In this document: positions 38,693 to 39,817 of the stretch, one piece after another
Position numbering within the stretch: the stretch's first letter is position 1
Layout of the letters: every line of letters begins with the position of its first letter
Source: Escherichia coli
Lineage (GTDB): Bacteria; Pseudomonadota; Gammaproteobacteria; Enterobacterales; Enterobacteriaceae
NCBI RefSeq assembly: GCF_003018115.1
Contig: NZ_CP027457.1
Direction: 5' to 3' (one strand)
DNA length: 64,000 nt
The notes under the pieces: generated by a model
Database searches by the model: none
The model's input: only the letters and a program-made list of their open reading frames with translations
What the model was told of the DNA's origin: nothing
Position numbers and translations under genes: made by a program

Positions 38693-38714
38693 TCTCTCCA
38701 TGAGTTAAATATTG

Positions 38715-38748
38715 AAACGGGCGTATAACACGCCCGTTGTTTTATTTA
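38715..38748 (+). terminator. icd rho-independent terminator
   Basis: aacgggcg..cgcccgtt hairpin followed by T run just after the icd stop. Confidence 0.7.
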
Positions 38749-38794
38749 TGTGGATATTATTAATAGCATATCGAGCATATTTATATGAAGCCCA

Positions 38795-39118
38795 TTACTT
38801 GAGCCCATATGGGCATATTTTTATAATGCAACTATTATGTAAACATTTATTTGTTATTTTGCTTTCTCCTGGAGGACACTCTTGACTGCTTTTGAGTAAA
38901 CTCCATAAATCCTTGTTGAATGGTGCGATGTGATAAATAGTAATAGGATATTCTTTATCCTTAAGGATAATACCAGACTTAACCAGTGTAAATATACTGC
39001 CAGGAGGGAGAAATATAGTAGATTGATACCAGATGATCATTTTCATATTACCCCATATGGCTGAAAAAGATATGCCGCATGAAGGTTGAATTATCGTGTC
39101 AATTACTATCCACTTCAT
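38795..39118 (-). CDS. iraM: Anti-adaptor protein IraM (RssB inhibitor)
   Basis: 107-aa product MKWIVIDT... matches E. coli IraM by recall. Confidence 0.75.
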
Positions 39119-39567
39119 TTGTTATGTCTTATTCCACGGTGTTTATTATAGTTCATTAGGATGTTCATTTCTTGATTTTGCATATGAGTATATTACCCCC
39201 TCAAAAAATTAATTAAAAATTAAAACCATTGCCTATATAAAACAAAATTTAAAGCAAGAAATCTCAATAGATATTAAACAAAATGAGATTTAGTGAAAAC
39301 ATTAAATCATTCACTTCGTTTTAGATTTGTTTAGTTAAAATGTTATACATTCAAATGACTGAACATCCTGTAATTAAAACATAGCCTTTATGCTACTTTG
39401 CGCTAATTTGCTAAACATTATGATTGGCCTTTTTATATAACGATAATGATGAATATAAGCATGACATGAGAATAAGGTTTCAATTTTTGAGTTATATAGG
39501 AAAGGTTTAACCTGTTCCTGGCTAAAATACATATAACCGGATGATGACTAAACCAAAATACATGTGC

Positions 39568-39610
39568 GTTAAGTATTGAAACGGACGTGTGGCACGCCCG
39601 TTGTTTTTAT
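39568..39610 (+). repeat. Second, slightly diverged copy of the icd 3'-end/terminator segment
   Basis: attgaaacgg-cg-t...cacgcccgttgttttt motif reappears about 850 bp downstream of the first copy, with no plus-strand gene upstream of it. Confidence 0.6.
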
Positions 39611-39817
39611 AAATATGTTAACCGTTATAAAATAACGTATCAAAAGTCAAGTGATCACATTTCAAATATCAAGTTGATAGTATTAGTCTGGTGATTATTT
39701 ATGGGTGACAATAAAAAGACAGTATTAATCATCCATAGAGATAGTCTCTGCACTTTTATTTCCATTATGCTAATGCCTTACTGAATTATGAAGCATTTCT
39801 TAAGCATCCAACTTTAG

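Follow-up and report, generated by a model that had tools for sequence, protein, structure and literature searches.

The iraM gene of Escherichia coli between twin copies of the icd terminator: a probable scar of a decayed icd-targeting element

The DNA described here is a stretch of 64,000 nucleotides (nt) from Escherichia coli (RefSeq assembly GCF_003018115.1, contig NZ_CP027457.1), referred to as the window, and the subject is the interval between its genes icd and ycgX. This interval carries iraM, a well-studied regulator that stabilises the stress sigma factor RpoS at low magnesium. The icd gene is complete and is followed by its own terminator, then iraM and ycgX. Neither the list of open reading frames (ORFs) nor the annotation contains a prophage between icd and iraM, as the initial annotation, made from the sequence alone, had stated. 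A second, diverged copy of the icd terminator lies beyond iraM. The two copies, T1 behind icd and T2 on the far side, delimit a cassette that runs from the first base after the GTTGTTTT of T1 to the GTTGTTTT of T2 inclusive (Table 1). This is the AT-rich segment whose length had first been put at about 0.85 kb; its guanine-plus-cytosine (GC) content is 31%, against 50% for the whole window. The AT-rich block as such (29-36% GC) continues past T2 through ycgX (38744-40222), and bluR is back at 49% GC. The probed 1.9-kb stretch (38400-40300) has 100% identity to E. coli strain F9792.

The second terminator copy is real. Positions 38701-38743 and 39565-39607 align without gaps at 37 of 43 identical nucleotides, with a start-to-start spacing of 864. 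Allowing a 2-nt indel widens the repeat to approximately 38697-38743 against 39559-39607. The best pair of 43-mers in 200 dinucleotide shuffles of the intergenic region reached at most 29 of 43. When the icd 3′ region was compared by BLAST with the whole window, T2 was the sole further copy (E = 5e-9), and repeat comparison and BLAST found no third copy of the icd end or terminator in the window, including the part right of T2. The repeat starts approximately 5-9 nt past the stop codon of icd. In Smith-Waterman alignments against shuffles, the sequence 5′ of T2 showed no significant similarity to the icd reading frame, either in the window (p = 0.12-0.33) or in the PT62-type haplotype described below (p = 0.33-0.71). 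Since no icd coding homology can be demonstrated before T2, the duplicated part of the window appears to be the terminator without the coding end. The repeat had first been described as an icd 3′ end with its terminator, and only the terminator part of that description stands.

T1 was called by the terminator scan as a hairpin with a 9-bp stem, 6 GC pairs and the tail GTTTTATTTA. Its predicted folding energy is -23.1 kcal/mol on the plus strand (z = -5.1) and -19.8 kcal/mol on the minus strand (z = -5.3). With a GC-rich stem-loop, a U-tract and a position downstream of a gene, it has the features of a predicted intrinsic (Rho-independent) terminator, and it may putatively terminate the convergent iraM as well. 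The T1 hairpin is invariant in six contexts, namely the window, K-12, PT62, 2013C-4282, B2 strains and the prophage-borne copy of O157. The substitutions in T2 differ from haplotype to haplotype, and T2 has diverged faster than T1. This pattern fits T1 as the selected copy and T2 as the relaxed one.

Table 1. Features of the icd-ycgX interval and its right neighbours (window positions)
Feature	Position	Strand	Description
icd	37442-38692	+	Complete, 416 amino acids (aa); ORF and annotation
T1	38697-38748	+	Left repeat, icd intrinsic terminator; ungapped repeat 38701-38743, hairpin 38716-38738, T-tract to 38748
iraM cassette	38744-39607		864 base pairs (bp), 30.8% GC
iraM	38795-39118	-	Anti-adaptor protein stabilising RpoS
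YmgB/AriR-like 5′ stump	39152-39183	-	Approximately 10 codons, ATG 39181-39183; from alignment with PT62
ymgK	39374-39418	-	Annotated 14-aa small ORF within the cassette (RefSeq)
T2	39559-39607	+	Diverged right repeat; ungapped 39565-39607, hairpin 39580-39602
T2 right flank	39608-39647	+	Equals the sequence 3′ of the single terminator in iraM-less strains
ymgL	39655-39765	-	Annotated small ORF outside the cassette; kept in iraM-less strains
ycgX (DUF1398)	39818-40222	-	Right neighbour, 36% GC
bluR	40443-41174	-	Right of ycgX

A comparison of the icd-ycgX interval across E. coli, as the initial annotation had proposed, covered 5,426 complete genomes. It revealed a clean presence or absence of 864 bp with breakpoints inside the repeats. 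Both terminator copies and iraM are found in 3844 genomes (~71%). Exactly 864 bp are missing from a further 1037 (19%), including Nissle 1917 and ATCC 11775, where the unoccupied site consists of the left flank, one repeat and the right flank. In one such genome, the 1901-nt query spans 1037 nt of the record, a difference of 864. Junction alignment shows that the single terminator of GmF052 and Nissle is the left flank and hairpin of T1 joined to the right flank of T2, which places the crossover within the common CACGCCCGTTGTTTT. Over 40 nt, the right flank of T2 is also the sequence found behind the single terminator of iraM-less strains. A 300-nt probe covering the icd end, terminator and spacer matched 1-4 places per genome (median 2).

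The remaining genomes are mostly O157:H7-like, with icd occupied by a DLP12-like prophage and the entire block from iraM to pdeG missing. In O157:H7 FRIK2455, the prophage at icd carries int, xis, emrE, ybcK, bor and ybcV; iraM through bluRF, ycgZ-ymgABC and pdeG are absent, and the sequence resumes at an autotransporter fragment beside minE. In some E. coli genomes, IS1 or IS200C has inserted between icd and ycgX, and in a Citrobacter sp. locus (L031 7600-8010) a degraded IS200-like tnpA occupies this place. Insertions have hit the interval repeatedly. In strain GF4-3, a rearrangement is also seen on the left of icd, where an STM2901-family/DUF1493 pair lies upstream in place of rluE.

A fuller haplotype was found in 19 genomes; a metagenomic contig gave the first example and strain 2013C-4282 the next. 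It begins with icd, T1, a 38-nt flank of the type found in the e14 prophage, a 455-aa ORF, a remnant resembling IS5/IS903 and an Rz′-trkG junction. The right part consists of a different terminator, a diverged iraM (81% nt identity), an intact YmgB/AriR-like gene, approximately 235 nt, T2 and ycgX. The flank after T1, ttgttagcatgctaacggttatcaaaattttatcaaaa, is that which follows the terminator copy of e14 in K-12 MG1655 and in the AHM8C160RI (L006) island, and the icd end, T1 and flank together are 87% identical to e14 over 194 nt. The Rz′-trkG junction is 86% identical to phage genomes, and the 455-aa ORF has weak PHROG matches of unknown function. The stretch of ~235 nt ends in ATCAAGAATATGTtAA, the last icd codons with the stop, directly before T2. 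With 15 nt of the icd reading frame included in this copy of T2, the repeat has a length of 66 nt. The T2 region matches the icd fragments of phage 21 and related lambdoid phages with 81.8% identity over 65 nt (E = 1e-7 against 2.3 gigabases). Judged by its sequence, the T1-T2 segment of 2013C-4282 is a recognisable prophage remnant and its T2 the displaced icd end. The divergent block of this haplotype goes past T2 through ycgX (88%) and ends before bluR (98.8%).

The PT62-type haplotype (11 genomes) is intermediate, with the YmgB/AriR-like gene intact (L007 2251-2715); an intact copy of this gene was counted in 11 of the 5426 genomes. Compared with PT62, the window lacks 433 nt, comprising the intergenic region between iraM and the YmgB-like gene and all but ~10 codons of the latter. 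Because of this deletion, iraM of the window and of the K-12/F9792 type in general directly follows what was once the promoter and start codon of the YmgB-like gene. The window type can be derived from the 2013C type by three apparent deletions: the segment from T1 to the iraM 3′ flank, the ~235 nt with the icd remnant, and the 433 nt. On the right side of T1 in the window, the iraM 3′ flank abuts the terminator, and comparison with the e14 flank gives p = 0.96.

That e14 and phage 21 duplicate the icd 3′ end is a classic finding. The segment of icd that icd-targeting prophages replace is the last ~168 nt (38525-38692). Identity between haplotypes is 89-97% over the last 170 nt of the gene, compared with 96.4-98.7% over the first 1080 nt, a pattern that fits a 3′ end replaced several times by copies from phages. 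In the O157 prophage, the AHM8C160RI island and e14 alike, the icd fragment includes a copy of the terminator, and in O157 this copy stops at the GTTGTTTT boundary, as T1 does. Behind its terminator copy, e14 has ~40 nt that are homologous to the right flank of T2, at the same offset (local alignment p = 0.0004-0.003).

It has been reported that e14 recombines at a core within icd, approximately 165 nt upstream of the stop codon (PMC6379469, citing Hill et al. 1989). The repeats of the window are thus not the att sites of e14 itself, with which the initial annotation had proposed to compare them. In K-12 MG1655, e14 is present and the T1-iraM-T2 arrangement lies immediately to the right of icdC, a pseudogene of 168 nt. 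A third terminator copy is carried by e14, the stem of which has compensatory changes (GGGAGCG/CGCTCCC). Because the e14 core lies within icd, a new integration pushes an older scar to the right, and the K-12 e14, to the left of T1-iraM-T2, is a separate and later event. Two terminator copies alongside an intact prophage had been named in advance as an observation that would tell against a scar; the arrangement does exist in MG1655, but as an older scar that was simply displaced it does not contradict this origin.

The probable scar shares its target gene with e14, an element that brings a substitute icd 3′ end with terminator and displaces the original to its far end (PMC6379469). The e14-type flank of 38 nt after T1 in the 2013C haplotype is a further link. 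Unlike e14, the T1-T2 segment of the window has a repeat of 43-49 nt that is the terminator alone, lacks the ~165-nt coding segment, att core, integrase and excisionase, and encloses 0.86 kb where e14 encloses 15 kb. Phage 21 and related lambdoid phages also carry an icd 3′ fragment with terminator, at attP, and T2 of 2013C-4282 matches this fragment. However, elements of the phage 21 type are intact or recently integrated, and the TTCCCCAAAAC repeats of their post-terminator flank differ from the flanks seen here. A further parallel is the ‘grounded’ prophage or small islet, in which the direct repeat made by the integrase outlives the element and accessory genes are kept by the host (PMC6379469). 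The iraM cassette would be an extreme case, with one regulatory gene left and the repeat reduced to a terminator hairpin.

In O157:H7, the TTCCCCAAAAC motif was also seen behind the terminator of the prophage (L005 6346-6400). Three repeats of this type immediately follow the icd terminator and precede ycgX in a Citrobacter-like metagenomic locus (L034 8460-8525), and they look as if a phage-21-type element had left a fossil attL flank in a second genus.

The IraM protein of the window belongs to NCBIfam NF007393 (171 bits, cut-off 121), is 97% identical to annotated IraM and falls into phrog_4407 (E = 1.5e-51). Paralogs with 63-69% identity lie between antiterminator Q and holin in lambdoid prophages, and beside stx in Stx2 phages; in both they occupy the position of accessory genes (‘morons’). 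One more paralog is located on an island with PerC and an integrase. Outside the coding sequence, no flank homology was found between chromosomal iraM and the phage paralogs. Dozens of IMG/VR contigs contain a 97-98% identical iraM approximately 1.1 kb from the contig end. These were not used as phage-borne iraM and, from position alone, were taken as icd prophage calls that overshoot into host DNA. YcgX is a member of phrog_413 (E = 5.5e-42), with paralogs in lambdoid prophages beside bor. YcgX homologs labelled E. albertii and Escherichia sp. E10V10 were set aside as paralogs, one in a lambdoid prophage and one at the yedE/fli locus, and are not orthologs.

The literature places iraM on the e14 prophage (PMC4045071). 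This is imprecise, as iraM lies outside e14 and, in K-12, to the right of icdC. The same source notes that CFT073 lacks iraM and carries its paralog iraL on another island (PMC4045071). The iraL gene, on the potB island of the uropathogenic E. coli (UPEC) strain CFT073, and the iraM-like genes of Stx2 phages belong to the same family as iraM (PF11183, phrog_4407) and are found on mobile DNA. They differ from iraM of the window in locus; the DNA homology is confined to the coding sequence, and the flanks are unrelated to icd.

Taken together, T2 is likely to be the original icd terminator, displaced by the integration of an icd-targeting element, with iraM as the surviving cargo of that element after its decay. 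Four observations support a scar: the population breakpoints fall inside the repeats, a fuller haplotype exists, IraM belongs to a phage family with paralogs, and icd and ycgX adjoin without iraM in Citrobacter. The suggestion, made from the sequence alone, that iraM had arrived as cargo is supported by the same findings, including the exactness of the indel. In two loci of Citrobacter type, icd is followed by a (different) terminator and ycgX, without iraM, and the icd-ycgX neighbourhood is common to both genera, which supports icd-terminator-ycgX as the older layout.

The reconstructed sequence of events would be as follows. The starting layout would have been icd, its terminator, a flank of ~40 nt, ymgL and ycgX. 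An icd-targeting element of the e14 or phage 21 kind would integrate at the core site within icd, bringing its own icd 3′ end and terminator, which would now serve icd as T1. The original icd 3′ end and terminator would be displaced to the far end of the element, on the attR side, to become T2. Near its right end, the element would have carried iraM and the YmgB-like gene. Deletions, in an order that is itself inferred, would then have eliminated the phage genes together with the integrase, what was left of the displaced icd coding sequence, and the bulk of the YmgB-like gene, so that only the 864-bp cassette would remain, with iraM between two terminator copies. T1 would be kept by selection as the working terminator, and T2 would be mostly a decaying fossil. 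As direct repeats ending in 15 identical bases, T1 and T2 would explain an exact removal of the cassette: recombination between them would give the iraM-less form. The initial annotation had proposed a footprint of integration followed by excision at the icd hotspot. The integration half is supported; there is no sign of excision, which would have removed one of the repeats, and the element appears to have decayed by internal deletions instead. The relationship of T2 to e14 can be accommodated if host DNA, from the icd core to 40 nt past the terminator, was at some time taken up by e14-type elements. On this simplest reading, T2 and its flank are the original host sequence.

Several points weigh against this explanation. 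The repeat of the window does not reach the att core ~165 nt upstream of the icd stop, and a later deletion has to be assumed, while the sequence before T2 lacks demonstrable icd coding homology in the window and in PT62, as given above. Even in the 2013C haplotype, icd homology beyond the last 15 nt is suggestive at most (p = 0.09-0.17). That haplotype may also have been imported whole and would then be no simple ancestor of the window type. Between T1 and T2, no integrase, excisionase or recognisable att core was found in the window, PT62 or 2013C-4282. No extant phage with iraM beside its attachment site was found in the phage collections, and the YmgB-like protein had no phage match. The homology between the T2 flank and the e14 flank can also be read as T2 being the left end of an even older element. 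Finally, the direction of the 864-bp change is deduced from similarity among a few haplotypes of a mosaic interval and not from a species tree.

One alternative is that integrations were stacked at this site. T2 and everything to its right, including ymgL and ycgX, would then be the left end of an older e14-type element, and iraM would belong to a younger layer. The e14-like right flank of T2 fits this, and K-12, with e14 to the left of T1-iraM-T2, provides a precedent. The membership of ycgX in a lambdoid accessory-gene family with paralogs beside bor points the same way, as do the AT-rich block and the 2013C divergent block, both of which span ycgX and stop before bluR, and the phage-21-type flank motif between the icd terminator and ycgX of the Citrobacter-like locus. 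Yet the window has no third icd end or terminator copy further right; the flank is equally explained by an ancestor of e14 that captured host DNA 40 nt past the terminator, and the icd-ycgX neighbourhood is present in Citrobacter as well. Stacking is considered possible but rather unlikely.

A second alternative reverses the polarity of the indel. The iraM-less form of B2 type would be ancestral and never occupied, and the cassette would have spread as an 864-bp insertion by homologous recombination in the flanks. The architecture of the empty form is that of the inferred pre-integration layout and of Citrobacter. Recombination is frequent in this mosaic interval, as seen in PT62, where ycgX is 99.3% identical to the window and the spacer 85%, and the one common YcgX accession (WP_000373104) of the empty genomes examined fits a single lineage. 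Against this, iraM and T2 occupy one and the same position in three deeply diverged haplotypes (window, PT62 and 2013C). The spacer beside T2 is 94.8% identical to the window in the empty haplotype, compared with 85% in the PT62 type and 71% in the 2013C type, the latter two of which carry iraM and T2. The empty haplotype thus nests within the iraM-bearing forms, which favours a secondary deletion, and such a deletion is mechanistically easy between direct repeats with an identical tract of 15 nt. From these similarities, the iraM-less form probably arose secondarily, by loss of the DNA between T1 and T2 through deletion at the repeats, and an ancestral empty form is regarded as unlikely.

It is also conceivable that T2 was kept for a function, either as a minus-strand terminator or insulator of ycgX-ymgL that guards the iraM promoter or as the end of a small plus-strand RNA. 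The plus strand of T2 has an A.C mismatch in the stem and folds poorly (-13.3 kcal/mol, z = -0.4), whereas the minus strand retains a continuous 10-bp stem with one G.U pair (-14.2 kcal/mol, z = -2.6). All three independent stem changes in the window, PT62 and 2013C are G-to-A in the plus-strand 5′ arm and preserve G.U pairing on the minus strand, a weak hint that ycgX-ymgL may still use T2 as a terminator, but three out of three has a chance probability of ~0.125. The K-12 copy of T2 has an additional C-to-G change that breaks the stem on both strands, and the strand-specific substitutions were downgraded as proof of a minus-strand function for this reason. The minus-strand tail, UUUCAAUACUU, is a poor U-tract, T2 was called on neither strand by the terminator scan, and no Rfam family exceeded its threshold at T1 or T2 (the top hit, tpke11, scored 23.5 bits against a gathering score of 43). 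The faster divergence of T2 relative to T1 is a further argument against constraint. A retained function is doubtful, though it would be compatible with an origin by integration.

A separate hairpin was observed in the PT62 and 2013C types approximately 130 nt to the left of T2 (L007 ~2930-2965). It has the plus-strand form GCCAACC-loop-GGTTGGC followed by 6-7 T and may mark where a small plus-strand transcript, running divergently from iraM, terminates. The counterpart in the window (39408-39436) is degenerate and overlaps ymgK.

That T2 is a chance resemblance or a dispersed hairpin repeat of the REP/BIME/ERIC kind unrelated to icd was rejected as virtually without probability, because, common as short GC-rich hairpins with T-runs are in intergenic DNA, the shuffles never approached 37 of 43, T2 is the sole other match in 64 kb, at most four probe matches per genome are too few for a dispersed family, and the population indel breaks exactly in the repeats.

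The initial interpretation is thus partly supported and was right in substance. The mechanism of a displaced icd terminator is the classic one for icd-targeting elements and is not new in kind. The finding corrects the position of iraM, which lies outside e14 and probably in an older and almost fully eroded element at the same hotspot. The twin terminators account for the clean split between presence and absence of iraM among E. coli lineages, and the icd-ycgX interval provides a marker of a size suited to the polymerase chain reaction, with 1.9 kb for the cassette and 1.0 kb for the empty form. Where elements integrate into one gene time after time, their scars pile up and become legible as strata, and the locus would be an example of a prophage eroded to a single host-useful gene between two terminators. 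In a more far-reaching proposal, which is tentative and on balance improbable, iraM, the link from PhoPQ to RpoS, would be the last working gene of a fossil icd prophage, its promoter derived from the deleted YmgB-like gene, with the twin terminators acting as a deletion device and T2 possibly as a minus-strand insulator. If true, a fifth of sequenced strains, UPEC and Nissle-type strains among them, would have lost the PhoPQ-to-RpoS link by deletion between the twin terminators.

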